The translations under genes and the position numbers were made by a program. Below are positions 22,967-43,236 of a stretch of DNA of 64,000 nt, one piece after another. The notes beneath the pieces were generated by a model that saw only the letters and a program-made list of their open reading frames with translations, had not been told where the DNA came from and made no database searches. How positions within the stretch are numbered: position 1 is the first letter of the stretch; the number at the start of each line of letters is the position of its first letter. Origin of the DNA: an uncultured Verrucomicrobiae bacterium (GTDB lineage: Bacteria > Verrucomicrobiota > Verrucomicrobiia > Limisphaerales > Palsa-1400); assembly GCA_963764165.1 (NCBI GenBank), contig CAVXRD010000001.1, positions 544,001 to 608,000 of the forward strand. Reading direction: 5' to 3'.

Positions 22967-23100
22967 TAGAGGGACGCCTCGGCGAGGTGTTGGGGGCAAC
23001 ACAAGAATGCCACAGAACTCGGATCTTTCGCCCAGCCATTGCAAAGATGGTTGCGTCCGAATATGCCGCATCCTCGGACGCCTCCGCGAGGCGTCCCTGC
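22967..23100. repeat. Degenerate REP doublet, family A
   Basis: TAGAGGGACGCCTCGGCGAGGTGT and GGACGCCTCCGCGAGGCGTCCCTGC. Confidence 0.7.
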
Positions 23101-24052: not shown

Positions 24053-24080
24053 GGATCGGAAGGGAATTAGCCGCAGATTC

Positions 24081-24096
24081 ACACAGATCAACACAG
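24081..24096 (+). repeat. Left 16-bp direct repeat (att core) ACACAGATCAACACAG
   Basis: Identical copy at 40767-40782. Confidence 0.85.
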
Positions 24097-24330
24097 TCTG
24101 TATATCGAATTCAGGCACGAGGAGAATACGGGTTTTCCCTCTGAAAATCAATGAAAATTCGCCGCAACTCGCCACTATTTTCGTTAATTTTCCGGTGCTT
24201 TTACTTGCAGTTTTACTGACAGTGACACGATGGCAAACTGAATGTTGAACGGCTCACGCAACCGCGCGGGCGCACTTCGCCCAGCATATGAGTTTGACCC
24301 ACGTCGCGTTCTGTCTACTATCACGCCAGC

Positions 24331-24672
24331 GTGAATGACGACACGTTTCGGTTTCGCTTCTGCAAGTTGATCGGCTGTCCCGCTGAAGAATATAAAGAGA
24401 GGGCGCTGAAAGAGTGCCTTTATCTCCACGCGCGACGCGTGGCCCCGCTCTTGCGTCTGGTGGTTCCCGCTCTTTTCGCAAAAGATCACGATTTCATACG
24501 CTACCTTGGCGACAAAACAACACGGTGGGACGCACGCGTTGAAATCATCTCTTTTCAGGAATCGAATCGCGAAGCAGGTTTCCTTCGCCGCGTGCTCTGG
24601 ATTCGGATATCGGGTCGTAAAGCCAGTTTTTTGGCATCGCGGATTCTAGGACGGGAAGAAGATCAACAGTAA
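24331..24672 (+). CDS. Hypothetical protein
   Basis: 113-aa ORF with GTG start. Confidence 0.55.
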   Translation: MNDDTFRFRFCKLIGCPAEEYKERALKECLYLHARRVAPLLRLVVPALFAKDHDFIRYLGDKTTRWDARVEIISFQESNREAGFLRRVLWIRISGRKASFLASRILGREEDQQ

Positions 24673-24694
24673 CAATTCTTCGCAGTCGCCTCGA

Positions 24695-25030
24695 CTAAAG
24701 CGTCGTCTTGCCTGCGGCCCTCACCTTCGCCCATCGGGCGCGGGCGGCTGCGGCAATCTTGGCCCTGGCTTCCGGGCTGCTACGACCGTCTTTCTTTTTG
24801 GTGGCTTTAGCGGAAGCGTTGCCTTTCATTTTCGCCCAGCGGGCACGCTGCGCGGCTGCAATCCGTGCTTTGCCTCCAGCACTCATCCCGCCCGACTTTG
24901 CCTTGGTAGGAGATGGTAATTCGGCACCACCGGCTATCAAAGCCAGTTCGCTGTTCAATCGTTCAATTTGTTCTTTAATCGCCAGCACGCGGCGAAGCTG
25001 GTCTGTCGTCAAACTCGAAATAGTCGTCAT
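24695..25030 (-). CDS. Small basic putative DNA-binding protein
   Basis: N-terminal coiled coil and two repeats, KARIAAAQRARWAK and RAKIAAAARARWAK. Confidence 0.75.
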   Translation of the reverse strand: MTTISSLTTDQLRRVLAIKEQIERLNSELALIAGGAELPSPTKAKSGGMSAGGKARIAAAQRARWAKMKGNASAKATKKKDGRSSPEARAKIAAAARARWAKVRAAGKTTL

Positions 25031-25105
25031 TATGTCACATTTAAGTTTCAATGCCGCTATCAGTCAAAGCGAAACGCGGATTTTATTACGATAACTGGGC
25101 CGTGT

Positions 25106-25144
25106 TAAAAAAAACAAAACCGAGCACGCCACTCAGCGTGCCCG
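25106..25144 (-). terminator. Intrinsic terminator-like hairpin
   Basis: On the minus strand CCGGGCACGC-loop-GCGTGCTCGG is followed by a T tract. Confidence 0.5.
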
Positions 25145-25454
25145 GGTGAAAACTAACTTACTGCGCCGCAAACCGTATTGAAAATGACACGTATTGTCTG
25201 CAAGGGAACCCTGCTTTTTCTTGTACTGAAGCCCCTCGCATCCTCAATTGCGTTTAAGTCGGATGCGAACAAACCGAGTCCCAGAGGTCAAAGACCTTTG
25301 GCGGGCAAGGTTTGGGAAGGAAGCCACCTTCCCAATAAAACGAAAATGCCCCGCGTAAGAGCGGGGCGCGATTTTTTTTCGATGGTCAATCCTCCCCCGG
25401 CATCATTATCCCATTGCCGCAATCATTGAAGCTTCCGTTTCGACTGCAGTTATC

Positions 25455-25688
25455 ATGATTTACACCTTTGTTCCACGACCGGTGATTACGGCAACGGCGT
25501 TGGAGAGTGGATTTCTTAGCATTAACGTAGGAGCGATAACGGCAAACTCACGCGTTGTGCTTCAAAGCAGTTCGGACTTAGTCAACTGGATTTGCATTGG
25601 GACAAATACGCCAAGCGGACCCGACACAACGTTCAATTTATCGCCCACAAATGCCGGGAGTTACTTTAGGGTTTTCGTGCCAAACTAA
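25455..25688 (+). pseudogene. C-terminal remnant of a secreted protein
   Basis: LQSSSDLVNW...YFRV resembles internal modules of 30802-34119 (YSSTNLSNW); no signal peptide or upstream domain. Confidence 0.5.
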
Positions 25689-25704
25689 TCGACCCAGTAA
25701 TTGT

Positions 25705-27804
25705 ATGCCCTCAATCGCCAAAGAATTATTAGAGAGTTTAGTTCCTGCTCCCTATCTCGTGATCGTAATTGGAACGCTGCTCGCCATTCTACTAGTTGTA
25801 GAGTTTGTGCTTAATCCCGACCTTTGGGGCAGGCTGCGAAAGGCATGGAAGCCTCTTGGTATAATTGCTATTTGCGCCGCCGCGTCGGTGTGTTTGACAT
25901 GGTATTTCCGTGGCGTATTTATGCGGTCACCGGCGGCCCGAACTGTGATCGTTGTTCCAAAATTCCCGGGCGATACAGGCGCGGTTCAACGGGACATCGT
26001 GAACAGCCTTTTAATTGAGTCTCTCAAACTGCAGATCACCAATCTAACCGTCCTCGCGGTTGACGATGTGCTCGATGGCGCTCCTGACTTCGGGGAAGCG
26101 GCGGACGAGAAAGCTCGCAGCATCGGAAGGAAATATAGGGCGTCTTTAGTCCTTTGGGGGGGAGGAATTGGCAGCAGCGGGAAACTGTGGGGGAGAATCA
26201 CAATTACCGACGCGACGGAATTCTTCATGAACAATTATCAACTGGGGCCACAAGCCGTAAATGTGATCCCGCTTCCGGACATTTTGATCCATAAGCCGAT
26301 CCGCCTGGCTCTCATCGCAAGCGGGCTGGCCGCCATTGGGCAAGGGCACTGCGATCTGGCTTTATCGAAGTTTCAACAAGCAACAAACGAACAAGGCTTA
26401 GAATCAAACGAGCTTGCCGCGTGTGCGTTCTACGCCGCAACTTGTCATCTTCGACTGGCCGAACTTACGAACAAGCCTGAGGATGAAGTGATTTATGCCG
26501 CGGATGATTTTCACCTTGCAGCAAAACTCTTTGGCGTCGCAAAAATGACAGAGGGAGAGGTGACCGCTGCCAACAATGAGGCGTATGCCTTGTGGCTTGA
26601 GATTAACCACGCAAAGCCTGAGAAAATTCCTACCCTGCTCAGCAATGCTGTTGATGTCTATAAAGATGCTGAGGGTAAGGTGGACAGGGTGAAGAGCATT
26701 AGGACTTACGGAGTTATTTTGGGTAATAAAGGCGCTGCATTACGCGACTTATCGCTTTTTAGCGGAACGAATTGCCCGGTTATTCTCGCGGACGCAATTC
26801 GGACGTATACGAACGCACTCGCGATTCTTGACGACGGAAGCAATCCTGCTGAGTGCGCGGCGATCCGAAACAACCTTGCAGTGGCGATGCAAGATTTGGC
26901 GGATTACAGCCTGGGAACAAACGTGGCTCTATGCCTTGCCGAATCGACGAAATCGATTGATCTTGCTTTGCGCGAGCGCAATAGTGGTAAGGAACTCGCA
27001 GAGAAGGCTTGTTCGTCGGCAACAATGGCGGCAAACCGATACAAGGTTGCGGCGCATCTTGGGGAATCCGAGGCATGGAGTGAGCTTGCGCTGGCAAGAG
27101 CCGATTGCCGCGAGGCACTTAGGTTCTATGGGCCCGGCAGGATGCCGGATCAATGGATAATCACTTTGAGTTTAAGTGCGGATATTTCGATAGCGCAGGC
27201 GTTAAGGCGACCGCCAACAGAACGACTTTCTTTGCTTAATGAGGCAGTGACGAATTATGCTAAAATACTGGCATTTACGGAGTCCGAAAAGTCGAAGCTA
27301 CAGCACGCTTACGCTCTTAATAACTTCGCAACTGCGCTGAGATATTTATCGATCTCCAGCCCGAGTGATGCCGTCGCGCTATTAAAGGCATCGGCGAAGA
27401 ATTTCGAGGCAGCCGTATCTATCTACGATGTCAAAGGACTCGTTTTGCAGTCCGTGAGAGTCAAGGACAATTTGGGCGTGGTCTGGTCTGATTTGGCGAA
27501 GCTTTCTAGCGGATCAGCGAAAGTCGCGTATTTGACGAACGCAATTGCTACACACGAGGATGTGCTGCGTTTTGTTAGCAAGGATAATTTTGCTCAAGAT
27601 TGGGCGTACGTCGAGTGTAACTACGGCAGCGATCTGTGTGCGATGGCTTCACTCATGAATGGCAAGCAGGCAAAGTCTTTCCGTGATCGCGGGATTATTG
27701 CGTATCAAAGAGCCTTAACTGTATTCGATCCGAGACATTTTCCTTATGAGTTCGACATAGTTATAAAGAAGCTACATCATGAGCAATCGGCTCCGAATAT
27801 CTGA
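25705..27804 (+). CDS. Membrane-anchored TPR repeat protein
   Basis: Two N-terminal TMs; repeated NNL[AG]..L..L helical repeats; start placed at MPSIA. Confidence 0.75.
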   Translation: MPSIAKELLESLVPAPYLVIVIGTLLAILLVVEFVLNPDLWGRLRKAWKPLGIIAICAAASVCLTWYFRGVFMRSPAARTVIVVPKFPGDTGAVQRDIVNSLLIESLKLQITNLTVLAVDDVLDGAPDFGEAADEKARSIGRKYRASLVLWGGGIGSSGKLWGRITITDATEFFMNNYQLGPQAVNVIPLPDILIHKPIRLALIASGLAAIGQGHCDLALSKFQQATNEQGLESNELAACAFYAATCHLRLAELTNKPEDEVIYAADDFHLAAKLFGVAKMTEGEVTAANNEAYALWLEINHAKPEKIPTLLSNAVDVYKDAEGKVDRVKSIRTYGVILGNKGAALRDLSLFSGTNCPVILADAIRTYTNALAILDDGSNPAECAAIRNNLAVAMQDLADYSLGTNVALCLAESTKSIDLALRERNSGKELAEKACSSATMAANRYKVAAHLGESEAWSELALARADCREALRFYGPGRMPDQWIITLSLSADISIAQALRRPPTERLSLLNEAVTNYAKILAFTESEKSKLQHAYALNNFATALRYLSISSPSDAVALLKASAKNFEAAVSIYDVKGLVLQSVRVKDNLGVVWSDLAKLSSGSAKVAYLTNAIATHEDVLRFVSKDNFAQDWAYVECNYGSDLCAMASLMNGKQAKSFRDRGIIAYQRALTVFDPRHFPYEFDIVIKKLHHEQSAPNI

Positions 27805-27899
27805 CACGAGTTTCTGGGAAGCCGTGTTGCGGAAAATGATTTGCGTAAAAGAGAGCGATCGGAGTTGAGGTTAATAGGCAGTCAGTATTTCCAATTGAA

Positions 27900-27927
27900 T
27901 GAACCGAAATGCGCGGATTTTGATTCA
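27900..27927 (+). other. Tyrosine recombinase site: TGAACCGAAAT-GCGCGG-ATTTTGATTCA
   Basis: 11-bp inverted arms (9/11 match) around a 6-bp asymmetric spacer. Confidence 0.75.
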
Positions 27928-27937
27928 CAAGAAAAAA

Positions 27938-28558
27938 CTACGCCTGCCCAGAATTTTGACAAGGCTTTTTCTTCGATTTTGTCATGGCCGCCCAAACCCT
28001 TCTGGCCAAGTCCCGTTCCTCGTCGCCGCTTGCATGTAGGTAAATTTCCGTTGTTTCGAGACGCGCGTGACCGAGCCATTTTTTGATAGTGGTCAAAGGC
28101 ACATCTTGCGAAACGCAGGTGATGGCGAAACCGTGGCGCAACCCTTTGGGCGAGGCCATTGCGCCGTTAATGCCTACTTCTGCCATCCGAATTTTAATGA
28201 GACGGTACGCCGTAGGCCGAGACACATTCCAAACGCGGGCTGAAGGTTGCAGCCGCGCTACGAGTTGCCGCAGTAACGTCACAAGGCTGTCAGGGACGGG
28301 CACCGCCCGGAAGCAACCCGGCTTGCGCCGCTTCATTGTCTCAAAGACCAAGGATTTTGCACGAATGTCAACGCGCCCAGCCGTCATATTCAGCGCTTCC
28401 GAGATTCGACAGCCGGTGTAAAGCAGCGTAAGACAAAAGGCCCGGGCGGAACTGTCAGGATCATCGTCAACCGCTCGCAAAAAGGCCTTTTGCTCAGCGC
28501 CATTTAGATACTTCCGAGTGCCCTGCCGGTCGAACAAGTCTGTCTGCTGCGCACTCAC
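27938..28558 (-). CDS. Small FimB/FimE-sized tyrosine recombinase (catalytic domain only)
   Basis: TGCRISEAL, KGLRHGFA, WLGHARLETTEIY; probable GTG start at 28558. Confidence 0.9.
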   Translation of the reverse strand: MSAQQTDLFDRQGTRKYLNGAEQKAFLRAVDDDPDSSARAFCLTLLYTGCRISEALNMTAGRVDIRAKSLVFETMKRRKPGCFRAVPVPDSLVTLLRQLVARLQPSARVWNVSRPTAYRLIKIRMAEVGINGAMASPKGLRHGFAITCVSQDVPLTTIKKWLGHARLETTEIYLHASGDEERDLARRVWAAMTKSKKKPCQNSGQA

Positions 28559-28561
28559 GGG

Positions 28562-28589
28562 TGAACCAGAATCCGCGCATTTTGATTCA
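28562..28589 (-). other. Second recombinase site with inverted spacer: TGAACCAGAAT-CCGCGC-ATTTTGATTCA
   Basis: Near-identical arms; the spacer is the exact reverse complement of the spacer at 27911-27916. Confidence 0.75.
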
Positions 28590-28620
28590 CGGAAAGATAA
28601 CAAAAATAAGAAGAAAAAAT

Positions 28621-28845
28621 ATGACTATCCAAAAAATCATTGGGGAGAATGGCACGATGCCAGCGCTCTGTGGCCGGGGTTCCTGCCCGGCGGCAATTCT
28701 GGCGGAAAACGGGGATGTGTTTGTGCAGGGCTACGTACCTGCGCCCGACGAGGGCGCGGTGTTGACTGCGCCGACCGGCGAAAGTTTCGTGCGCATGCCG
28801 CGTGCGACGTTTGAGAAAATTGCCCGCCAGGTGCTGGCGGCGTGA
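28621..28845 (+). CDS. Small hypothetical protein with C-x4-CP and VQGY motifs
   Basis: 74-aa ORF from ATG after a purine-rich leader; overlaps the end of nothing coding. Confidence 0.6.
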   Translation: MTIQKIIGENGTMPALCGRGSCPAAILAENGDVFVQGYVPAPDEGAVLTAPTGESFVRMPRATFEKIARQVLAA

Positions 28846-28847
28846 AC

Positions 28848-29318
28848 TCATTCGATCTCCATTTGAGCCGCCGGTTGCGGCGGCTCAATTTTTCTCAACA
28901 ACTCATTTACGTGCTTTTGGAAAGACAGCGGATAAAAATGGCCTTTCTCGTGCCAATGCCGCCGCATGTTCTTCATGGTCATGAAGTCAACGAGATTGCG
29001 CTCAATGCTCTCTTTGAGTTCGGGCTGGGCCACTGTGCGCTGCATGTAGGTGAAACTGAGAGACAGTTGATTAAGCCAGAGTTGGAGATAGCGGGTTTGC
29101 CAAAGCGGATCAACATCGTCGTGGTCGTCAAGAATCTTGAACAGAACCGGGTGCGAAAATCCCAAGGCCATCAGTTCGCGATTGATGTCATAAAGTTTGA
29201 CGAGCGAGTCGGACTCGCGCTGACGATTGCCAACATGCAGTTGGAGCGCGACGAAAAACAAACCAACAAGCGATATGATGGTGGAAGCCAGCGAAATAAC
29301 ATGATCCCAAGGCAGCAT
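28848..29318 (-). CDS. Hypothetical protein with a single N-terminal TM
   Basis: Hydrophobic N-terminus followed by a helical domain; GGAGAGG upstream of MLPWD. Confidence 0.65.
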   Translation of the reverse strand: MLPWDHVISLASTIISLVGLFFVALQLHVGNRQRESDSLVKLYDINRELMALGFSHPVLFKILDDHDDVDPLWQTRYLQLWLNQLSLSFTYMQRTVAQPELKESIERNLVDFMTMKNMRRHWHEKGHFYPLSFQKHVNELLRKIEPPQPAAQMEIE

Positions 29319-29402
29319 GTGACCTCTCCCTTTGACAGGCAATTAAGCGGAAAGCGATTAATCCCATTTGGACTAATCGAATTTGGTTGTCAAGGTCGCG
29401 GG

Positions 29403-29702
29403 ATGGATTACTCACCTCGATACGGACAATTTCGGGCGACGCTGCGGCGCATTCGTGTCGAAGCAGGACTGAGCCAAACGGGACTTGCCGCGAAGCTCGG
29501 CAAATCGCAGACATTCGTTTCACGCTCGGAGCTTGGCGAGCGCCGGATTGATTTCATTTAGACGGTGGATTTTTGCGCAGGCTGCGGCGTTACGGTCGGC
29601 GATTTCATGACGCACCTGGCGAACGCCGCACCTCATTCACGGGGGCTGAAACGCAAAAGCCCGCGCCGCATGGACGCAATGGGAAGACTCACTGGCTTGT
29701 AA
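29403..29702 (+). pseudogene. XRE-family HTH regulator interrupted by an in-frame TAG at 29559
   Basis: LRRIRVEAGLSQTGLAAKLGKSQTFVSRSELGERRIDFI*TVDFCAGCGV continues in frame after the stop. Confidence 0.7.
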
Positions 29703-29879
29703 CCTGTGAATTTGACACTTAAACACGACATTCTTGCGGAGTGTGCTTCTGACAGCACAGCCATTTCCGGCTTGCGTTTTTTAGCATTGACATGCAGTCT
29801 TTTGAGTGTCGCAGCAGCCAGACGGTCCGCTGACAGTGTTTTAGCGACACGCGAATTTGTTTCGGCAATTGCCGTGAAT

Positions 29880-30722
29880 ATGAACATGGGAGGACGCCAA
29901 AGAGCTTTCACGCTCATTGAGTTGCTGGTGGTCATTACCATCATTGCAATACTGGCCGCGCTCCTGCTTCCGGTGCTTTCCAAGGCCAAACACAACGGTC
30001 AAGACGTCAAGTGTATCAATAATCTCAAGCAAATTTCGACGGGCGGGCTGATGTATCTTGACGAGTGTGGCCCTACGATTCTGGAAAGTGACACAAACGA
30101 AACCACTTACTGGCCGGAACGGTTGGCTCCATACGGAGTAACTACCAATCTGTTGCTTTGTCCGGTGACGCAGATCGTCCCCGTTACCGGGAATGGCGGT
30201 TACAATATAGGCACGGCTTCAGTGAGTTGGTCGTTTTGGCCTCCCCCATTTTCCACCCCGCTGAATGGCTCTTACAGCATGAACGGATGGTTTTTCTCCT
30301 ATGATACAGGCCCGGATAACGGTTGGGATTCACCCGCGCCGCCACCGGTGACCAGTAATCCGAGTTTTTCATTTCGCAATACTTCCGCAATCCAACGCCC
30401 GGCAGTAACACCGTTCTTTAACGATGCAATTGTCTGGGACGAGTGGCCCCTCGAAGTCGATGGGTCTGCGGCGGATTTGTCAACCGGGGCGGGGTTTAGC
30501 ATCTGGGGGATGCAACGCTGCACCATCTGGCGTCACGGCGGTAAAACCGCCACAACAATGACTCCCGTTACGGATTCCATGATACCGCCGATTTATCGGT
30601 TTCCTTCCTCGTCTGCGATAAACATTGGTTTCGCGGATGGGCATGCTCAGGCGGTGAGACTGAAAGACCTTTGGAACCAATATTGGCATTATAATTGGAA
30701 GCCGCCGGTCAATATGCAATAG
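29880..30722 (+). CDS. Prepilin-type N-terminal cleavage/methylation protein
   Basis: [33 protein letters not shown]. Confidence 0.9.
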
Positions 30723-30801
30723 CGCACGTTTTCCCCATGCAACAACCAACCACAAAAACCACCTGAATCTTCAACCAGGCATCAGGGCCTATCCCAGAAA
30801 G

Positions 30802-33800
30802 ATGCAGCCTATGCACAAGACACGTACATTGCTCGTTTTGACGTTCATATTCAGCGTTCTGCTTGCAGCGCGGAGTGCCCACGCTCAAACCCCGGATTGG
30901 GCTGACATGATTGAGGTGTCCGAACTTCCCACCAACGGGGTATTCTTTTCGATTCAGCTATATCCGTCGCCTCCGTGGCCCGCCGACCCATATCCTGATT
31001 TACCGCTCTACACCGACACCAATGTTTCAGGCGTTTACTGGTTTGATGATCGCACCGTCGATTACGGCGAGGCCCGCCATCGCCACCATCACCGGAGCAG
31101 TTCCGGCGGCGGCGTAATTATCGCGGACGATGAGGAGGGGCCGCCAGCCCCCGGTGGAACGAATACAGGCAGCGGCGGCGGCTCGCTTTATGTCCCGACG
31201 TTCACGCCGCCCGGCTTCGGATTTACAAACTGTGATACGTGGACGAATTTCTGGCTCGTGATGAGCCAGACCAACTCGACCACCAATCTTGCCATCGGTG
31301 CCATCTCCAATACGCTGCCCGGCTTGCAATACTGGTTGCTCGCGACAACCAATCTTGCCGATCCCCACTGGACGGTCATCCAGATGTTGACGGCGTCGAA
31401 TTCCTACACGCCGTTCTCGGTGACGACTGGCGGCAGCAATTGCCTGTTCTTGTGGGCGGTCTTAAACACGAACACTTCACCGCCCATCATTACCGTGCCC
31501 CCAACGAATCTCGTGGTTGCCGCAGGGAGTTCGGCCACATTCTCGGTGACGGCCACAGGCGTTCCCTCGGTGGGTTACCAGTGGTATTTCGACGGGACAA
31601 ACTTGCCCGGTGCGACCAGCAGCACGTTTACGATTCCCAGCGTTAGCGCTACGAATCTCGGCATTTACACCGTTTTCGTCACCAATGTGCTGTGTGAGGC
31701 AAGCGCCAGCGCCGGACTCGGCATGATTTGGTCCAATTACCTGGGCCCGATTGACGCCTCTGCGGCCATTGACCCCAAAGGAAACATTTACATCGCAAAC
31801 ATGAATAGCCAATTTTTCTCGCTGACTGCTGCGGGCGCCACCAACTGGACAGCGACTGTCATTACCGGGGCTAACTACAACGACCTGACTCCGTCGGCGA
31901 CATTTTCGCCGGACGGCAGCGCCATATACATCGGGACCCAGGATTCCTCGGGAGGTTATCTCGATGCGTTCAATCCGTCCACAGGTTCTCTGTTGTGGCA
32001 AGTGCCGCTGGGTGGCTGGGTTAGCTCAACCCCAGCCGTTGCGACAAATGGCTCTGTGTACGTGGTGGCCGAAAACAACACCACCAACGGGCTTTTTTCC
32101 ATCAACCCGCACACGACCAACATAAACTGGATCTTTTATACGGATTGGGGCGTGGAAGAAGGTATCGGTTCGGCTTCGTCCCCCGCCATTGGGCAGGACG
32201 GCACAGTTTATTTTACCGCGGCGTATAACGGGGGAGGACGGCTTTACGCTGTTAATCCAAGCGGGGGGCTTTCGTGGTTTTTCCCTTTCCCAGAAGGAGG
32301 CGCACCAGCCACATCCCCCGCCATCGACGCCGCCGGTAATATCGTTTTTGGCTCTGGCGATGGCTACGTTTACAACATCAGCCCCACGGGAACATTGCAG
32401 TGGCTATTTGACACAGGCTCGGCGCAGACTATCGCCTCATCTCCGGCGATTGGGCCAAACGGCTTAGTCGTGGTGGCGACGGAAGGAAATATGGTTTACG
32501 GGATCACGAATGGTGCCCAGGCTTGGGCATATACCGGTGACCAAGCTTTCATCTCGTCGCCTGCTATCGCAGCAGACGGAACTGTGGTTATTGGATGTGC
32601 CGATAACACCCTTTATGCAATCACCAATGGGGCCGTGAAATGGTCGTATACGACCGGGGGCTACATATTCTCCTCACCCGCCATCAGCCCGGTTTCGGGA
32701 GCAGTAGTGTTCGGTTCGGATGACGGTTATGTGTATTCGCTGTCCGGGGTGCCGGCGCTTGCAGACTCGGCGTGGCCCATGTTTCACAAAGCCCCAAATC
32801 ACAGCGGGGCGGCCCCGGCTACGTCGGAAGCGACGGGCGATTACCTTGCCGCGTTCCTCAACAGTCCGCAGATCAACACGAGCGCCTCACCGCCGTATTT
32901 TAGTTTCGATGTGAGCGGAACCCCAAACAGCGGATGGGAAATCTATTCCTCGACAAACTTAAGCAACTGGACCTCAATCGGCTCGGTCGTGCTTGATTCC
33001 TATGGCCTGTACTCTGGATTCCAAACCACAAATATTTCGGGCTTGACCAACTGTTATTTTGAGGCGCACGCCGGGGCCTTTTGTTCACCGATTGTGGGTT
33101 TTGCAAATGTCACCATTCCGGCGGGATCGAGTCTGATTGCAAATCCGTTTCAACAGGCGGATGATTCGCAGAACCCGCAAAATTCGGCTGCAGGCTGGTT
33201 CAAATTCTTACAGCAGAACTTAACCAATACTCCCGTTCTGCCGTATGGGTCAATCTTGACCGAATGGAACGGAGTAAATTTTGTCGGTGAAACGAACCTT
33301 GCGACTCAAGTCGGATGGTTTCCGAACGGGGACAACCTAATGGTACCCGGCCGCTCGGCGTTCTTCATAAATCCCACGAATTCGTTCAGCGTTCCTTTTG
33401 CGGGCTGGATGCCGCAGCAAACAATATCAAAATCCATCGTTGCCGGGGAAAATTACGTAAGCTCGCTGGTTGCGATTGCCGGGCATGTACAGACTGACCT
33501 GGGTTACAACCCGAACAGTGGCGACAAAGTGCTTTTGTGGAACGGAACCAACTTTACCACTAATACTTATACATATCCGACCGGCTGGTCGCCCTCTGAA
33601 CCGTACATCAAAATAGGCGAGGGTTTTGTAATCCTTGCCGTGCAGAGCAACATCTGGACAAAAACGCTCTCAACGTGCCCCGATACTTTCGTAGTCCCTG
33701 CAAATCCTCTTTGGACAGATTCAGGGGCCACGGTTGTGAGCAACAACCTCGTTATATTTGTTTCGACCAACACCTGGTCGGGCGAGAACGGGCAGTACTG

Positions 33801-34119
33801 GAATGCGAACGGCATTCCAGGCGGGGGAGACGGTACGGATGTATTTCTCACTGACACCATTGCCAATCAGTTCGCCTTAATCGCTTTTGTGGGGCCGAAT
33901 CCCTATTACGATACCAACGGCGTCAATCGCTGGGGTGACAACACCTATTTTCCGCGACCGGCAGGACAAGGCTATTTTCTTGTGGGAACCAATGGACAGT
34001 TTACGAGCGACCGCGCGGGAGAATTATGGTTTGGGATTAATGACGATGCCACTAGCAAAGCCATTGAGGATAATTTTGGTGCGCAATCCGGGCACCTCGT
34101 TATTACGAATGCGCCGTAG
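30802..34119 (+). CDS. Large secreted protein with Ig domain, PQQ-like beta-propeller and lectin-like C-terminus
   Basis: Signal peptide; ATFSVTATG..YQWY Ig motif; repeated SSPAI..DG.V motifs; terminal VPAN..WTDSG...GELWFGIND..DN.G. Confidence 0.8.
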   Translation: MQPMHKTRTLLVLTFIFSVLLAARSAHAQTPDWADMIEVSELPTNGVFFSIQLYPSPPWPADPYPDLPLYTDTNVSGVYWFDDRTVDYGEARHRHHHRSSSGGGVIIADDEEGPPAPGGTNTGSGGGSLYVPTFTPPGFGFTNCDTWTNFWLVMSQTNSTTNLAIGAISNTLPGLQYWLLATTNLADPHWTVIQMLTASNSYTPFSVTTGGSNCLFLWAVLNTNTSPPIITVPPTNLVVAAGSSATFSVTATGVPSVGYQWYFDGTNLPGATSSTFTIPSVSATNLGIYTVFVTNVLCEASASAGLGMIWSNYLGPIDASAAIDPKGNIYIANMNSQFFSLTAAGATNWTATVITGANYNDLTPSATFSPDGSAIYIGTQDSSGGYLDAFNPSTGSLLWQVPLGGWVSSTPAVATNGSVYVVAENNTTNGLFSINPHTTNINWIFYTDWGVEEGIGSASSPAIGQDGTVYFTAAYNGGGRLYAVNPSGGLSWFFPFPEGGAPATSPAIDAAGNIVFGSGDGYVYNISPTGTLQWLFDTGSAQTIASSPAIGPNGLVVVATEGNMVYGITNGAQAWAYTGDQAFISSPAIAADGTVVIGCADNTLYAITNGAVKWSYTTGGYIFSSPAISPVSGAVVFGSDDGYVYSLSGVPALADSAWPMFHKAPNHSGAAPATSEATGDYLAAFLNSPQINTSASPPYFSFDVSGTPNSGWEIYSSTNLSNWTSIGSVVLDSYGLYSGFQTTNISGLTNCYFEAHAGAFCSPIVGFANVTIPAGSSLIANPFQQADDSQNPQNSAAGWFKFLQQNLTNTPVLPYGSILTEWNGVNFVGETNLATQVGWFPNGDNLMVPGRSAFFINPTNSFSVPFAGWMPQQTISKSIVAGENYVSSLVAIAGHVQTDLGYNPNSGDKVLLWNGTNFTTNTYTYPTGWSPSEPYIKIGEGFVILAVQSNIWTKTLSTCPDTFVVPANPLWTDSGATVVSNNLVIFVSTNTWSGENGQYWNANGIPGGGDGTDVFLTDTIANQFALIAFVGPNPYYDTNGVNRWGDNTYFPRPAGQGYFLVGTNGQFTSDRAGELWFGINDDATSKAIEDNFGAQSGHLVITNAP

Positions 34120-34188
34120 TAAGGCGGTCGCTATTTCTTAAAATTACGGATCAACAGTTCAAAAGATTTAAGGCGTAAACGGTCAGAA

Positions 34189-35139
34189 CTATAATCCTTT
34201 TGCGCAGCGGAAGCCAAACCAGCCGCACTCGCCTTCGGGACCGGCGCAAGTGCGAGCTGCGCACCGCGCGGCATCGGCGTTGTTGCCCCAACCGCCGCCG
34301 CGTCTGACGCGTCCGAACTGGGGATTTAGCGCTCCGTGCGGATCGGTGCCTCCCAAATAAGGGCTGCCTTTCCCATACGGCGGCGGCGTAAGCCAATCCC
34401 AACACCACTCGGTAACATTCCCGGCCATGTCATAAAGCCCATAACCATTCGGCGCAAACGACCCCACCGGACTTGTATGGGGATTAAAATTCGACTGAGG
34501 CCCTTTCGTATACTTTGGGTCGAGGCCCCCGGGTCCCACGTCGTAGTTACTGAAGCCGCTGGGGTCCGATACGTAGTTAGCCTGTTTTCGCGAAATCTTG
34601 TCGCCCCACGGAAACCGCTTGCCGACCAAGCCGCCCCGTGCCGACTTTTCCCACTCCGCTTCGGTAGGCAACCTATACCCATTGGCCTCCCACTTCACAA
34701 ATGGCTTCCGCACTTCCCCATTCGTGTAAACCTTAGTCAAACCCGCGTCCGTGTAATATACCGGAACCAGACCTGCCTGTTGCGACCGCGCATTGCACCA
34801 CTTCACAGCGTCGAACCAATTAATTCTGCACACCGGATCTTTTGCCGTCTTGCCCAGACCGGCATTCACGAAACCGTATCCGTGGTTCGTCGCCCAATTA
34901 TAGACGGCCTGCCATTGACTGTAGCACACCAAGTTCACGTCCATGTAAAATGCCGACACGTTCACGCTAACGGGGATGGTGCGTGCTTCGTGATCCACAG
35001 TGTCTCCCATTGTAAATGTTCCCGCCGGAATTAGCGCCATGCCAGCGGGAACAACACCGGAAGCCGGTTGGGCTGAAGCGCGATGAACGACGGCAGTTAG
35101 CGCAAGCGCGATTAAGACATTGCATAATTTTGTTTTCAT
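34189..35139 (-). CDS. FGE-sulfatase/SUMF1 family protein
   Basis: IPAGTFTMG, YRLPTEAEWE, GLYDMAGNVTEWCWD, GFRC; signal peptide from MKTKL. Confidence 0.9.
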   Translation of the reverse strand: MKTKLCNVLIALALTAVVHRASAQPASGVVPAGMALIPAGTFTMGDTVDHEARTIPVSVNVSAFYMDVNLVCYSQWQAVYNWATNHGYGFVNAGLGKTAKDPVCRINWFDAVKWCNARSQQAGLVPVYYTDAGLTKVYTNGEVRKPFVKWEANGYRLPTEAEWEKSARGGLVGKRFPWGDKISRKQANYVSDPSGFSNYDVGPGGLDPKYTKGPQSNFNPHTSPVGSFAPNGYGLYDMAGNVTEWCWDWLTPPPYGKGSPYLGGTDPHGALNPQFGRVRRGGGWGNNADAARCAARTCAGPEGECGWFGFRCAKGL

Positions 35140-35205
35140 AATTTTGGTAAAAACCGATTCTTTCCACATCATGATTTGTCCCGTACGAATTTAATGACAA
35201 TCCGC

Positions 35206-36060
35206 TCAAGCCGGGTTATTCGGCTCATCCTTCGCCATATTGTCCGGTGGTGCCAGCGCAGCAGGCTTCTCTGGCGCAGGCGTCAGGTTCACTTGCACAA
35301 ACGGCTTTACTGGCTGCGGCTCTTTTGAAAGCCGTTCCGCCTCTTTGATGGCTGCACGGCGAATTTCGATCTGCCTGTGGATATCAAAAGCGACGCCGGT
35401 TGGTATGCCTGCTGTGTCCTGCAAGGTGCGCTCCTGCTGGGCTGGCTGCGACCCCGCAAAATGCTCGACTGTTTCACTCTGCACCTCGGCGGCGACCAGC
35501 CCGTCCAGAATATCAAGATCGCGGTCAAGCTGCTTCTCGTAAAGCGTCTGCTCGAAAATGAAAAGACAGAGCGCAGAGAATGCGAACCATCGCGCCAGAT
35601 ACATCGAAACGAACGAGCCAAAAAACATGGCAAAGATGAACACGGCAATGGGATCAAGAAAGCGGTAGATTCGGCGATGGGATTTCAGGATCGCGGGCAG
35701 CGGCAGGAGTTCCAGGTAAGACACGCCGGTTGAAAGCGTGTGCCAGCGTTCGCCCCGGCAAAGCTCCTTCCAGCGCAGGTAACGCTGGGAGAAGCCTGCT
35801 ATCATCAAAACCATCGGGAATTCCGTGAAGACAACCCCGGTCGATTTGACCAGCGGCAACATATTTACCATGTCATCGACGACCGAAAGAAAAAACGCCA
35901 TGCCAATGATGCGTGTTGGTTTGAGCATTCGGAAGCCGACTTTGCGTCGCATGAACACCATGATGGTGAGCGCCGGAAAAATCGCCAGATACTGGACGAT
36001 TTTCATTTTGTCGGCGATGGTGAGGTCTTCGTTGCGTTGGGATTGGGTTTGGGAGGGCAT
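35206..36060 (-). CDS. Hypothetical multi-TM protein
   Basis: 284-aa ORF with several hydrophobic segments. Confidence 0.7.
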   Translation of the reverse strand: MPSQTQSQRNEDLTIADKMKIVQYLAIFPALTIMVFMRRKVGFRMLKPTRIIGMAFFLSVVDDMVNMLPLVKSTGVVFTEFPMVLMIAGFSQRYLRWKELCRGERWHTLSTGVSYLELLPLPAILKSHRRIYRFLDPIAVFIFAMFFGSFVSMYLARWFAFSALCLFIFEQTLYEKQLDRDLDILDGLVAAEVQSETVEHFAGSQPAQQERTLQDTAGIPTGVAFDIHRQIEIRRAAIKEAERLSKEPQPVKPFVQVNLTPAPEKPAALAPPDNMAKDEPNNPA

Positions 36061-36067
36061 GGTTTAT

Positions 36068-36260
36068 TTACTTTTGGTTAAACGTGATGAGTTTATAGGG
36101 GAGCATTTCTTCCTTACCTGGGCTGCCTGTCGGAAACTGGTGGCCGCCATTGTAGACAATGGCCTGCACCTGAAATTTATGCGCTGCGCCTCCGCGTTTC
36201 AAAGTCGTGAACCGGGCCGGTTCGACAAAATACCGCCTTTGCTCACTGCGCGTAACGCCG
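36068..36260 (-). pseudogene. C-terminal gene remnant, possibly of a conjugative coupling protein
   Basis: Coding-like YFVEPARFTTLKRGG...VQAIVYNGG..F ends 7 bp before the next gene and has no credible start; the family call is from recall only. Confidence 0.4.
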
Positions 36261-36449
36261 GATGACTGGTTGCTTCCCTGCGGGTTGCTAGGGCAAGAGG
36301 GAGTGACGATGACCAAGCCGATCTATGGAGTTTACCACGGCAGATTTATTGAAATGCTGTTGACGCATTTTGATGACTCTTTCGCTTCTGTGGCGGCTAC
36401 TGCCCAGAAAGAAACCGCTGTCGACAGTTTTAAAGCTCGTGGGGACTGA
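36246..36449 (+). pseudogene. C-terminal remnant of a hypothetical gene
   Basis: VTPDDWLLPCGLLG...YHGRFIEMLLTHFD abuts the opposite-strand remnant. Confidence 0.4.
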
Positions 36450-36510
36450 CGGCTGAAACCATTTTCCTAGATCGGATTTTCACGGTTCGTCAGGATTCTA
36501 TGAAAGAAAA

Positions 36511-36909
36511 ATGGCAACGGAAATGATGGCAGCCCTCATCCACTGGCGCATTAAGCCAGATGAGAGCAGTAACGCAGCATTCCTTAAACACTGGAAGGCA
36601 AACAATGCAATTGGTGATCGAAGTGGCCTTATTGCAGAGTTCCTGAGCGACTCCCTTCCAATAGCTGATTTTCCGTATATCACTTGGCATTTGGACGGCG
36701 AATCTCTAGGGGATTTCAAATCGTATGTCACCATAGGTCTTTGGGCAGATGCCGAGGATTTTAAGGATGAAATTGCAAAATACTTTAACGATGGTAAGCC
36801 AATGCTCAAGTTTGAGAAATATCGGCGACGGCGCGTCGTGTTCAAGCCAATAGGGTGGAGAATTGGAAAGACATCGTTACCCAAAGGCGACTCCACGGGT
36901 GTAAAATAG
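36511..36909 (+). CDS. Hypothetical protein, possibly an ABM-like alpha/beta barrel
   Basis: 132-aa ORF with pattern WRIKP...FLKHWK...YVTIGLW. Confidence 0.6.
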   Translation: MATEMMAALIHWRIKPDESSNAAFLKHWKANNAIGDRSGLIAEFLSDSLPIADFPYITWHLDGESLGDFKSYVTIGLWADAEDFKDEIAKYFNDGKPMLKFEKYRRRRVVFKPIGWRIGKTSLPKGDSTGVK

Positions 36910-36989
36910 TCGGCGGAGAGTCTCAATTTATTGAGGTCGGCAAATCCGGGATACGTCAGTTAATTCGCTCGATCTTGTGCGATAAACAA

Positions 36990-37294
36990 GGGGTATAATT
37001 GGGGGTATATCCGTTCTCAAAGTTTAAAAATATCGTGGCATTTCAGTTTGATATACCGTTTTCGTGGTTACCGTAGGGGTCACCAAAACTTAATAAATTC
37101 TTGGTGATTGGAAGGTGCAAATAGGGCCAGCATCGTCCCAAAAGCGGCGTCAAAATTCTGTGTCACAGCCAATCTTGCGAATATCGGTCGGGTGTGTTTT
37201 CTCCAGTTTCATCCAAATTGCAATTATTGACAATCGGCCCGATTTTGGGGTATAATTTCTGTGTTTATACCCCACCGCAGGAGATTTATACCCC
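36990..37294. other. attP-like region: five GGGGTATA arm sites around the core CCGTAGGGGTCACCA
   Basis: Arm copies at 36990, 37002 and 37247 (direct) and 37266, 37287 (inverted); core at 37071-37085 ends in CCA. Confidence 0.7.
37227..37256 (+). promoter_or_regulatory. Sigma70 promoter of the integrase, TTGACA-18-TATAAT
   Basis: Perfect hexamers; the -10 overlaps the arm site at 37247. Confidence 0.75.
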
Positions 37295-37296
37295 TT

Positions 37297-38505
37297 ATGG
37301 CTCTCTCGGACGCAAAGGTGCGCAATGCCAAGGTCGGCCCCAAAAACTACAAGATCGCCGATGGCGAAGGGCTGTTCCTGCTCGTCCATACGAACGGCGG
37401 CAAATACTGGCGGATGAAGTATGTCTTTGCGGGCCGCGAAAAGACGCTCTCCCTTGGCGTTTACCCGGATGTGGGTTTGGGAGACGCCCGCGATAAGCGG
37501 GCCGCCGCCCGAAAGGCTCTTGCCGCTGGAATAGATCCTGGCGTGGCAAAGAAGGAAGCCAAGCGCGAAACCGTCTTAAAGGCGGCGAACTCGTTTGAAA
37601 CCGTGGCCCGCGAGTGGCTTGAAAAACAAAAGGGGCGATGGTCGGACGTCACGCAGACGATTCATCTCAACCGGTTGACAGCACACGCATTTCCGACGCT
37701 GGGGAGCCGCCCCATTGCAGACCTCAAAGCCAGCGAAGTGTTGACGATGCTGCGCGGTATCGAAACCCGGCAAACCTTGGAAACGGCGCACCGGGTCAAA
37801 CAGGATTGCAGCAAGATATTTAATTATGCCATCGCCACGACTCGGGCCGAGCACAATCCAGTGCCCACTTTGGAGGGAGCTTTGGCTGTGCCGGTCACTC
37901 AACACCACAAATACCTGAAAGAGGACGGGCTGCCGGACTTTTTCCAGCGGCTGGAAGCCGGTGATTTGGACGACCTGACCAAGCTGGCATTGCGCCTGAT
38001 TGTGCTGACTTTCGTGCGCAGCATCGAATTGCGCGGTGCCAAGTGGTCTGAATTTGACCTGGGTAAAGCCGCGCAATGGGTGATTCCGGCGGAACGCATG
38101 AAGATGAAAGAGGCGCATATTGTTCCTTTGGCGAGCCAGGCAGTCGCCATACTGCACGAATTGAAGGAATTGACCGGGGACGGGGCGTATGTGTTCCCCA
38201 ACCAGCACAACCCCGAATCCTTCATGAGCGACAATACTCTAATTTACGCCCTTTATCGCCTCGGCTACCGCTCACGGATAACCGTCCACGGTTTCCGTTC
38301 CACGGCGTCAACGATTCTCAATGAGAACGGCTTTATGCCGGATGTGATTGAAAGGCAACTCGCGCACAGCGAGCGCAACGAGGTGCGGGCCGCTTACAAT
38401 CACGCGCAATACCTGCCGGAGCGGCGCAAGATGATGCAGTGGTGGGCGGATTACCTTGACAAGGTTGCGGGCAAGAAAAAAGCGACGTGGCGGAGCAGGT
38501 CGTAG
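37297..38505 (+). CDS. P4-like integrase (arm-binding domain tyrosine recombinase), intact
   Basis: MALSDAKVRNAK..YKIADGEGL, TFVRSIELR, HGFRST, ERQLAH, AYNHAQYL. Confidence 0.95.
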   Translation: MALSDAKVRNAKVGPKNYKIADGEGLFLLVHTNGGKYWRMKYVFAGREKTLSLGVYPDVGLGDARDKRAAARKALAAGIDPGVAKKEAKRETVLKAANSFETVAREWLEKQKGRWSDVTQTIHLNRLTAHAFPTLGSRPIADLKASEVLTMLRGIETRQTLETAHRVKQDCSKIFNYAIATTRAEHNPVPTLEGALAVPVTQHHKYLKEDGLPDFFQRLEAGDLDDLTKLALRLIVLTFVRSIELRGAKWSEFDLGKAAQWVIPAERMKMKEAHIVPLASQAVAILHELKELTGDGAYVFPNQHNPESFMSDNTLIYALYRLGYRSRITVHGFRSTASTILNENGFMPDVIERQLAHSERNEVRAAYNHAQYLPERRKMMQWWADYLDKVAGKKKATWRSRS

Positions 38506-38746
38506 CGGCTTCATTCACTGCCAGGATTCTTCCATTCTTTGCTCGGGCGGCTTATTGGCCATGACCGTGACTAAGTCGTGGCTGGTGGCGTCCGTTCTTA
38601 AAAGGCGTGTCGCTTCCGCGCTGGCGCTTGTGCAGCTTCGCCCGCTGTTGCGGCGCTGGCGCGGCCTTTCCGAGCGGCTCTTGACCACCAGCCCTTTCCT
38701 CGTCACGTCTGGCCAATGAAGGCCGACGATTACGAAAGGAAGAACC

Positions 38747-38848
38747 ATGACCGTATTTGAATTCGCTCTCCTGCTGAACGCCACAGCTAATCTTGCATCC
38801 GCACTCCTAAAGGCAATCGACCTCTACCGCGAGGGCCGCCGCCGATGA
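38747..38848 (+). CDS. 33-aa peptide MTVFEFALLLNATANLASALLKAIDLYREGRRR
   Basis: AAAGGAAG RBS; stop codon lies inside a terminator hairpin; below the ORF-track length cutoff. Confidence 0.5.
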   Translation: MTVFEFALLLNATANLASALLKAIDLYREGRRR

Positions 38849-38860
38849 GGCGGCGGTTTT
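38836..38860 (+). terminator. Intrinsic terminator
   Basis: CCGCCGCC-GATGA-GGCGGCGG-TTTT. Confidence 0.65.
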
Positions 38861-38871
38861 CGAGATGGCGG

Positions 38872-39633
38872 TTAGATGCGTGGCTTCTGAAACACCATGC
38901 ACACATCGTGCAGGCCGGGAATGAAGCTGCTGCGGTAGACCTTCTTGCTGCTCGATGCCCCGTGACTGAACCGGATAATGTCGGTGCAGCATTGGCGAAG
39001 GCCGGCAGCGAAAGCGAGTTGCTTCGTGTGATAGGTGAGTGAAACGAATCCGGCCTCACGGTCGCAGTAGTCTCCCATGAGGATTGCGAATTTCCCACCT
39101 GGTGCCAGAACTGCCATGCAGTTGGAGATGAATACTGCGTAGCGTTCAAGGAATACCGCCAGTGTCGGCGTGCGCGATAGGTCGCCCGGATTGTTGGTGT
39201 AAAGCTTCTGCCGCCAGTAGGGCGGATGCGCCCATACGAAGTCGAATGTTGCGCATTCCGGCAGACTGCGGAAGCAATCGGCGTCGGTGGCGTCAAACCC
39301 GTTGCGGATGTCACGCGACAGGCACGGCGTGCCAAGCTCGCGGCATACGTCCGCGCATGTTCCGCTGCCAGTCATCGGGTCAAATACGCTTTGCGCTCCG
39401 AAAAACACGAGCAAGTCACGGATGAGCTTGCCACCGCAATTACCTGGGTATTTGCGGTCGCCATATTCCCCGGCACGGTGAAAATGATAAAGGCTCGTTA
39501 GGTGCGGCACGGGACTGGCGTTCACGGGTGCCAGCGGCAACCGGGCATAAACCGGCGTGGCGCGTGGTGAAACTGCAACGTCACGTTGTTGCGCCGCGTA
39601 ATCCGAAGTGGTTGACTGAATGAAATTGATCAT
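38872..39633 (-). CDS. Orphan amino (N4-C/N6-A) DNA methyltransferase
   Basis: Motif I FDPMTGSGT precedes motif IV HPPY. Confidence 0.8.
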   Translation of the reverse strand: MINFIQSTTSDYAAQQRDVAVSPRATPVYARLPLAPVNASPVPHLTSLYHFHRAGEYGDRKYPGNCGGKLIRDLLVFFGAQSVFDPMTGSGTCADVCRELGTPCLSRDIRNGFDATDADCFRSLPECATFDFVWAHPPYWRQKLYTNNPGDLSRTPTLAVFLERYAVFISNCMAVLAPGGKFAILMGDYCDREAGFVSLTYHTKQLAFAAGLRQCCTDIIRFSHGASSSKKVYRSSFIPGLHDVCMVFQKPRI

Positions 39634-39855
39634 GGCTGAACTCCATCGGTATAGGTGCATCCAGTGATGTGGGCATAGATTTCTTCGGCATGTTCACGGC
39701 TCTTGAAGTCGCCGATGCAGGACAGGCCCTCGCTGGGGATGTGACCGAAGAGACTCCAGAAATCGGCGTCGTCATCGGCTACCTGCTCGCACCATCTATC
39801 GCCAGAGGTTGCGAATTCCTTGACGCCGTGGATTTCGTAGCCGTCGAAGCGGGTG
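39630..39855 (-). pseudogene. 5'-truncated hypothetical gene coupled to the methyltransferase
   Basis: FDGYEIHGVKEF...CEQV..FWSLFGH..CIGDF; its TGA overlaps the MTase ATG and its 5' end is replaced by integrase sequence. Confidence 0.55.
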
Positions 39856-40569
39856 GCGCAATACCGTTTCCAGTTTCTGACTGATTGAGAACTGCGCCCG
39901 TGCGCCGGTCTTTTGTCGAAAATACGTGATCGTCCGGCTGTTCCAATCCACATCCTCGGCGGTCATGTTCGCGGCGTCGGCCTGCGCCGCGCCTGTCTCC
40001 CACAAAAGTTCCAAATACAGCTTCCACTCCGTTTTATCTTCGTGTGCAATGATGCGCTGTTGTTCGTCAGACGTGAGGCCGCGCCGGTCTTTGGCGTGAT
40101 ATTTCGGCCAGAGATAAGGAGCCACTACCGGAAGCGCAATCCAGCCCATGCTCAAGGCGAAGTTGTGCAGCCGTTTCAAAAAGCGGACGATGGACACTTT
40201 GCCGTCTTTGAGCGCGGCAATGAAATCGTCGGCGGTGGTTTCCAGCAATTTCTTTCGGCGCAAGGCATCATAAGACGGTGATTTGAACACGCTCGCGTAA
40301 CGGTCTTTGCTGCTGTCCTTGCCTCGGCTTTGCAACTGATCCATGACGGTCTGCCATGTGCGCTCCACATAGGCGGGATCACTGGCCGTGAGATAAGCGC
40401 GGGCAAGGTGCAGATTGAGCGTTGGTTGCTGCTGCGCCTCATTGCGGGCATTCAGAAGCCTTCGGGCTTCGGATTCGTCTTTGGTGCGCAAGCTGGTCTG
40501 TTTGCCGGTTACGCTGTCCTGCGCGTAATACATTTCTCCGCGCCGGAACATGGTGTATTTTGTTTTCAT
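39855..40569 (-). pseudogene. 3'-truncated tyrosine recombinase/integrase
   Basis: MKTKYTMFRRG..TGKQTSLRTKD; LLWETGA...DVDW...YFRQKTG, then no HxxR, H or Y. Confidence 0.75.
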
Positions 40570-40766
40570 AACTGGACACCCTGATTTTCGATATACCAGT
40601 CCTGCACGCGCCGCGTTTGTGAACGCCAGCGGTGGCAGAGTTTCAGCGAGTTTTGAACAGTGGCGGCGAATTGTTCTGGCAATCGCCGATTTACTGTCCG
40701 TTTCGCTGACAGTGGCCGTTGATCCGTTCAAGAAACCGCTAATTGGCAACGGTTTACATATCTTGA

Positions 40767-40893
40767 ACACAGATCAACACAGATTTTTAAGAACGAACGT
40801 CAGTCGCATTATTTTGCGGCGGCGTTTCCATTTGGTCTTTTTGTTCATTGGCTTCACCGGTTTTATCTGTGTTGATCTGTGCAAATCTGTGGC
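40767..40893. repeat. Right 16-bp direct repeat plus the remainder of the split palindromic element
   Basis: ACACAGATCAACACAGAT ... ATCTGTGTTGATCTGTGCAAATCTGTGGC. Confidence 0.85.
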
Positions 40894-40952
40894 CAAGCTT
40901 TCCGCAGCAGAGCGGGCTTGAACTGTGTGTTTGGCAGGATACAGTGGCGGCG

Positions 40953-43150: not shown

Positions 43151-43236
43151 GTAGCGCAGGTTTCCAAACCTGCTGTATCGCGGATTTCCAAATCCGCTTG
43201 CCGTATATAGGCACGCAGGCTTGGAAGCCTGCGCTA
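43151..43236. repeat. GTAG-type REP cluster, family C
   Basis: GTAGCGCAGGTTTCCAAACCTGC ... GCAGGCTTGGAAGCCTGCGCTAC. Confidence 0.75.

Follow-up and report, generated by a model that had tools for sequence, protein, structure and literature searches.

In a 64,000-nt stretch of the 7.0-Mb genome of an uncultured Verrucomicrobiae bacterium (the genome is called G000 below; the whole stretch is the window, and plain coordinates are positions in it), an island of 16,686 bp lies between host genes for a xylose-isomerase-like protein and a prolyl oligopeptidase. The island carries envelope-type cargo genes, the remnant of a mobilization module, an internal P4-type integrase gene and, at its right end, the broken gene of a tyrosine integrase, referred to here as the terminal integrase (Table 1). 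Its GC content per kb is 0.48–0.58, compared with 0.57 genome-wide. No tRNA gene was found inside the window, and the attachment site lies in no tRNA or tmRNA gene; the island instead splits one arm of a dispersed palindromic repeat, and we consider it almost certain that the lineage of its terminal integrase targets this multicopy repeat.

The boundaries are marked by an identical 16-mer at 24081–24096 and 40767–40782, with identity stopping at both edges. A preliminary description of this DNA had reported this pair and had noted that removal of the interval rebuilds a sequence complementary to positions 40865–40893, and both points were confirmed, with the arm rebuilt by excision pairing with that partner arm at 26 of 29 positions. 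Its statement that the remaining positions are G-T wobbles was wrong, as they comprise one G-T and two C-A on the + strand and two G-T and one C-A on the − strand. The shared 16-mer by itself would prove nothing, because the count of genomic copies that the description had called for gave 60 exact copies in G000 (0.002 expected under a fifth-order Markov model), alongside 114 fuzzy matches to the arm, 66 of them arranged as 33 inverted pairs. Each arm is built of three units of roughly 10 bp with two variable letters between units, and 56 of the 60 exact 16-mer copies are whole arms. In the window, the left copy has the 5′ unit of the arm and lacks the 3′ end, and the right copy lacks the 5′ unit; the remaining two non-whole copies (C2:1952631 and C4:234950) resemble ordinary diverged copies. 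Both window half-arms are fused to integrase-binding arm-type sites (CTGACAGTG) located just inside the two ends of the island, and rejoining the halves restores an ordinary arm of three units, separated from its partner by 80 bp, a typical spacer length (61–92 bp in 21 of the 33 arm pairs of the genome). We conclude that one repeat arm is split by the ends of the island.

Homologous elements split other copies of the repeat at many loci. A second complete element in G000, on contig C2 (L016; 17,003 bp), splits another arm at its first junction, between uvrB and purS-purQ (named from their translations); the left end of the window island shares 88% identity with two others in this genome, and arms also hold the third left end (C1:64232) and an orphan, decayed right end (C1:529716). 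Among 31 genomes scanned for junctions, which were picked for carrying the integrase, left junctions were found in 22 and right junctions in 28, with no control matches. A scan of metagenomes yielded 34 further junctions, including one of attP type on contig L246, and viral contigs gave no match to the junction motif. Over all loci there were 66 distinct left-type junctions (L246 and one likely chance match included), with several elements in different copies within a single genome and up to six left junctions in one case (G048). Seventeen elements of 1.9–30 kb could be delimited at both ends (two from G000, 13 from ten other genomes and two from metagenome contigs), and terminal integrase sequence is present at the right end in 16 of them; six carry genes that we take to be relaxase-like and five carry genes that we take to be coupling-ATPase-like. 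The preliminary description had proposed a search for an empty site in relatives, and one was found for the clade member on G063:C3, whose two flanking genes are at most 112 bp apart in 17 of 19 congeneric loci and enclose, in G079, an intact and empty arm of the target repeat.

Several of these loci showed further features. L226, L233, L253 and G069:C61 share one host site, where the left junctions differ between samples in overlap letters and element ends, which suggests that this site was used repeatedly. At G061:C44 96132–99736, two opposed right ends 1.3 kb apart lie next to a 2.2-kb element. In loci L283–L300, one intergenic site, with an unchanged pair of flanking genes, holds differing palindromic repeat families in the individual congeneric species and almost nothing in two of them. 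On C1 of G000, the order of the ends forbids pairing of the orphan right end with the left end at C1:64232, and the segment C1:51800–64232 carries RadC, coupling-ATPase-like and relaxase-fragment genes, with no integrase found.

The terminal integrase gene begins about where the preliminary description placed it, ~200 bp inside the right repeat (ATG at 40569, 198 bp), and is truncated. Relative to the C2 element, ~4.7 kb has been deleted near 39856, leaving an out-of-frame fusion to a small open reading frame (ORF), and the fragment falls below the PF00589 cut-off (E = 1e-4), which the intact 345-aa integrase on C2 (L016:1745-2782), 84% identical to the window copy, exceeds. Across the integrase family K, HxxR, H and Y are kept; these are gone from the window copy, which lacks HxxR, H and Y together with the rest of the catalytic C-terminus. 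Because this C-terminus is lost, we regard the island as a decayed element, and the claim that "this integrase uses" the repeat holds for the clade and not for the truncated copy in the window. The first catalytic Arg is replaced by Ala or Ser in 100 of 100 aligned rows, so that the family departs from the canonical RKHRH-Y site, and R218, invariant in the same 100 rows, may act as the substitute catalytic Arg. No NCBIfam model scored above its cut-off for the terminal integrase, and a PDB sequence search gave no match with the single protein and six distant recombinases with a profile. The family is a large one, with 3,561 of 8,000 scored proteins reaching E ≤ 1e-60 (annotated only as integrases), and the close homologs found for G000 are mostly from Verrucomicrobiota.

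In all, 110 integrase loci were examined (the best 80 of 105 from one search and 30 from another, two being the pair of G000 itself). Inspection of their flanks, as the preliminary description had advised, showed the repeat adjoining the integrase at a fixed offset in 32 of the 35 loci with at least 67% identity. The other three were uninformative (L033 and L068 are partial matches, and L100 has no upstream DNA); the right end of L068 was afterwards located in the repeat, and L057 (a split gene with a score of 62%) likewise adjoins it. Ten short rows were left out of the tree, and the 100 kept were labelled by motif as repeat (32), tRNA (62) or other (6). A single branch separates the 32 repeat rows from all others, which requires one change compared with a mean of 26.9 for shuffled labels, and the Shimodaira–Hasegawa-like approximate likelihood ratio test (SH-aLRT) gave 90 for the repeat-only node and 99 once the sister rows L052 and L053 join. 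On the repeat clade's side of the midpoint root, 12 of the 13 tRNA rows are of the tRNA-Asn type, and within G000 four distant family members (about 41–44% identity) adjoin tRNA-Thr, -Thr, -Cys and -Asn genes, with the tRNA-Asn integrase at C3:620314. The repeat-targeting clade sits among tRNA-targeting integrases.

Two other groups of loci in the tree also adjoin repeats. In the sister clade L052/L053 (G075 and G076; 61% identity), the 7-bp geometry is unchanged but another dispersed repeat is split; the repeat of L052 has 34 motif matches in G075 versus one for the control, and its motif recurs as a direct pair. L093 and L094, nested among tRNA-Thr types, adjoin the short palindrome GTCCCTTCGGGAC at two different loci, possibly an independent switch to a repeat.

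Conserved arm-type sites are present at the element ends, as are the inverted core sites ACAGAT and GTCTGT, which are separated by 7 bp. In attP, ACAGAT precedes GTCTGT, and arm sites lie on either side of the two core sites and the 7 bp between them. The distance from the arm site to the 7-bp block is 69 bp in 31 of 32 repeat-type loci and 70 in one; among the ten tRNA-type rows with a scored arm site, the overlap is at 68–69 in seven and at 80–82 in three. At tRNA-type ends identity ceases directly after overlap position 7, which fixes the right boundary of the overlap, and element-specific letters extend to 3–4 bases from the left edge of the block. These boundaries suggest that the exchange region is a 7-bp overlap and not 16 bp; the 16-bp repeat first described is the 7-bp block plus core-site identity at both sides. 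The tRNA-Asn block (GGACTCG) and the commonest repeat block (GGACACG) are in register and one base apart. Overlaps are identical at both ends in 10 of the 17 delimited elements and differ in the other seven, at positions 1–3 only, so that agreement at the seven positions among the 17 pairs is 16, 13, 14, 17, 17, 17 and 17. Position 7 is A/G-polymorphic within genomes, yet it agrees in 13 of 13 pairs (ten genomes; 8.8 expected; P = 0.005 given the A/G mix of each genome).

The best explanation for these results is that the island is what remains of an integrative element that could probably once be mobilized, and that integrases of its Verrucomicrobia clade insert into an arm of a repeat resembling repetitive extragenic palindromic (REP) sequences and not into a tRNA gene; we consider the mechanism as a whole probable, at the most. 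An attP-bearing circle would recombine with a double-stranded arm, in which the host CACRGAT unit would serve as a strong core site and the following 7 bp as the overlap. Identity would be required at the right end of the overlap, and mismatches may be allowed at positions 1–3, where the letters of the repeat vary, as described below for the IntDOT integrase. The site would derive from a tRNA-Asn T-arm target (GGACTCG to GGACACG), with the left core site changed and the spacing kept. Each three-unit arm would offer two junctions, of which the window island would have taken the second, and the island would now be movable only with the intact C2 integrase acting in trans. The integrase lineage would thereby likely have many intergenic landing sites, as the preliminary description had supposed, and the repeat copies are used unequally.

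A number of observations weigh against parts of this account. The tree is a quick version with a midpoint root, and the nearest neighbours of the repeat clade in it are two long branches, one of them Ser-type. The loss of the first Arg is family-wide, tRNA-type members included, and so does not explain the switch in target. With just ~16 bp of P arm retained, the attP-type junction on L246 does not prove that a free circle exists. An empty site for the window locus was not found among the relatives examined: the right-gene peptidase was matched in 36 of 41 genomes searched, the five closest peptidases (71–78% identical) have other upstream genes, and the best matches to the left gene in four congeners are just 40–44% identical. 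A sequencing run that contained 6% of the sequence words showed no joint across the island, which speaks neither for nor against an empty site. For the C2 element, a search of five relatives likewise found no uvrB-purS junction. Finally, GG stands at the start of 55 of the 66 left-type junctions, compared with 38 of the 114 arms at the first junction in G000, a bias that indicates that homology still matters. The mismatches at positions 1–3 (8 of 51) do not differ significantly from those at position 7 (0 of 17; p = 0.19), and the lower value obtained against positions 4–7 (0 of 68; p = 0.0008) is inflated because the search patterns constrained positions 4–6.

These last points bear on ordinary homology-dependent exchange, a somewhat unlikely alternative in which the target is the same, all seven overlap bases must match and a subset of copies is usable. 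Differences between the ends of an element would then have arisen later, by mutation, by gene conversion among repeats or by pairing of the ends of different insertions. The full overlap match in 10 of 17 pairs, the GG bias and the non-significant contrast with position 7 are in its favor, as are the orphan ends in the genome, which indicate that rearrangement happens. However, all eight mismatches fall within positions 1–3, and position 7, though equally polymorphic, has none. Among the mismatched pairs, three have the consensus GGACAC at the left end and two at the right, a distribution predicted by heteroduplex segregation, and the window overlap, with its CA start, is two changes off the consensus at both ends. 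We lean, with reasonable though not strong confidence, toward IntDOT-like mismatch tolerance at positions 1–3, with change after insertion as another possible source of the differences.

A second alternative is that the folded palindrome, as a hairpin or cruciform, is recognized as attB, in the manner of integron integrases, which act on folded attC sites. The split arm and its partner do fold well (−25.1 kcal/mol, z = −4.8), and both complete elements of G000 occupy paired arms. However, a partner arm lies within 140 bp of the right end in just 5 of the 17 delimited elements, which indicates that a single arm is read as sequence and probably not as a folded stem; furthermore, the geometry equals that of the relatives' tRNA sites, and the motif of the sister clade's repeat recurs as a direct pair. 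Recognition of a folded site is thus improbable, and the earlier proposal of a REP-like stem as attB stands in that a multicopy palindromic repeat is the target, with one arm probably sufficing without the stem.

We consider it very improbable that the internal P4-type integrase placed the island. Although it is the only intact large integrase within the island, and P4-type integrases with an apparently intact attP-like region occur in 5 of the 17 elements (those of the window, G055, G063:C5, G069 and G071), with a fragment in a sixth, it is missing from most elements, whereas terminal integrase sequence is at the right end of nearly all, and it is preceded by an internal attP-like region of its own with different, repeated GGGGTATA motifs. 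Coincidence of two independent repeat copies around a variable region, which the preliminary description had named as a way in which an abundant 16-mer could undo its reading, is already refuted in spite of that abundance, since each window copy supplies the half-arm that the other lacks and adjoins an element end of a kind also found at further split arms, both in G000 and in other genomes.

Islands and integrative and mobilizable elements that target tRNA genes, including the relatives described here (tRNA-Asn, -Cys, -Thr and -Ser), likewise have an integrase at one end and arm- and core-type sites, and the tRNA-type relatives have equal arm-to-overlap spacing in most scored rows. In contrast, the window family inserts into an intergenic repeat dispersed as >100 arms and restores no gene, with several elements in different copies within one genome. 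In its features the family resembles IntDOT, the integrase of CTnDOT of Bacteroides. The relevant portions of the IntDOT literature describe an overlap of 7 bp in which 2 bp on one side must be identical, and several attB sites, six of them known, with one conserved core site (PMC2817482, PMC3809561); they also describe a first catalytic Arg that is absent, with a downstream Arg in its place (PMC8138268). The window family shares a probable 7-bp overlap, the use of several attB sites, the single conserved core site and the missing first Arg, but its target is a palindromic repeat family and its apparent tolerance (positions 1–3) seems narrower.

Targeting of REP sequences by insertion sequence (IS) elements and of a repeat by a serine integrase is already known, to judge from extracts of the papers concerned. 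ISPa11, ISPpu9, ISPpu10, ISPsy8, ISRm19 and ISRm22 target multicopy extragenic palindromes (PMC1525189), and phiRv1 of Mycobacterium tuberculosis has a serine integrase with attB inside the repeat REP13E12 (PMC9317374). Unlike the transposase-only IS elements, the window family combines a tyrosine integrase, cargo islands of 2–30 kb and attP/attB logic, and unlike the prophage-like phiRv1 it uses a tyrosine recombinase on a short palindrome. REP13E12 is a long, low-copy repeat. In a survey of mostly open literature we found no paper on a tyrosine integrase clade that targets REP-like repeats, and tables of islands in supplements could still list these elements.

The target repeat itself is REP/REPIN-like in its short, multicopy, extragenic palindromic arms, often in inverted pairs with 60–90 bp spacers and scattered between genes. 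REP/REPIN elements accompany RAYT transposases, but no RAYT gene was found at the target repeat, which instead adjoins one of three full-length PD-(D/E)XK_3 genes, the other two adjoining other repeats. As candidates for a RAYT, the ten Y1_Tnp matches were rejected, since none lies within 3 kb of an arm (nearest, 3.2 kb). The three PD-(D/E)XK_3 genes (G000 C2:709766, C2:1601711 and C2:1025025), presumably of GxxExxY type, each have their own repeat family, which recalls the RAYT-REP pairing, and Rfam gave no match over the three loci. It is a guess that such nucleases spread these repeats.

We are evenly divided on a broader scenario, in which the lineage would have left a niche of single tRNA sites by adjusting one core site with the 7-bp overlap nearly unchanged, becoming a parasite of selfish palindromes probably spread by GxxExxY-type nucleases; mismatch tolerance would open variable copies to it, and sisters would use other repeats. 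If true, nature would here provide a gene-sparing system that integrates at many sites and whose change of specificity can be traced. Target switching by integrases is usually inferred across distant families. Here, one genome contains both tRNA- and repeat-targeting members, about 43% identical and with equal site geometry, so that the residues and bases behind the switch are directly testable. The results also show that dispersed palindromes serve as landing pads for whole cargo islands, beyond IS elements, and an integrase whose intergenic target is short and tolerant could become a multi-copy insertion tool for Verrucomicrobia. Since one current integrase-mining pipeline, as outlined in part of its description, discards attB sites whose crossover block is multicopy (PMC12884075), repeat-targeting systems may be under-counted.

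Table 1. Features of the island and its flanks (positions in the window).
Feature	Position	Strand	Remark
Left host gene, xylose-isomerase-like TIM barrel	23186..24052	+	PF01261
Host part of attL, arm units 1–2	24070..24088	+	unit 2 is the inferred B core site
attL, inferred 7-bp overlap CAACACA	24089..24095	+	register over 17 attL/attR pairs and tRNA-type relatives
Left end of the element, GTCTGT core site (P) and P arm	24096..24229	+	arm-type sites 24200-24224
Cargo, 735-aa protein	25597..27804	+	no match in Pfam, NCBIfam or PADLOC
Small tyrosine recombinase, nested	27900..28590	-	ORF 27938-28603
Cargo block, DUF6082 protein and the next three rows	28848..35172	.	
Cargo, prepilin-type N-methyl protein	29706-30722		
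Cargo, Ig/beta-propeller protein	30802-34119		
Cargo, FGE-sulfatase-domain protein	34189-35172		
Mobilization-module remnant	35206..36301	-	
Putative second integration module, P4-type integrase	36990..38505	+	Arm-DNA-bind_3; ORF 37261-38505
Methyltransferase-like gene and 3′ part of small ORF fused to broken integrase	38872..39855	-	
Terminal tyrosine integrase	39856..40569	-	broken after about codon 237; frame continues to stop 39796
Element right end, P′ arm-type sites and P′ core site	40690..40774	+	arm-type sites 40690-40714; core site ends ACAGAT
attR, predicted overlap CAACACA and last three arm bases (host)	40775..40784	+	overlap 40775-40781
Partner arm of host palindrome	40865..40893	-	80 bp from split arm
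Right host gene, prolyl oligopeptidase	40848..43133	+	PF02897 and PF00326; real start probably ~40934-40950

Within the mobilization-module remnant, a 284-aa protein is common to 8 of the 17 delimited elements, and the final 77 codons of a coupling-ATPase-like gene are kept, which we take to be VirD4-like from its Walker motifs; no relaxase is left in the window island. PADLOC gave only weak methyltransferase matches among ten cargo proteins. The P4-type gene and its attP-like region suggest a second, alternative integration module. In relatives the core of this module resembles, by eye, the 3′ ends of tRNA or tmRNA genes, and no tRNA target for it was found among 56 tRNA/tmRNA genes. The small recombinase gene is bracketed by two palindromic ~29-bp sites with mutually inverted 6-bp spacers, from which we predict that the segment 27900–28590 is invertible, in the manner of self-inverting segments; its homolog in G053 has a similar palindromic site ahead of its start. 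Palindromic intergenic repeats unrelated to the target repeat flank the island on both sides, at 22970–23098 and 43151–43237.

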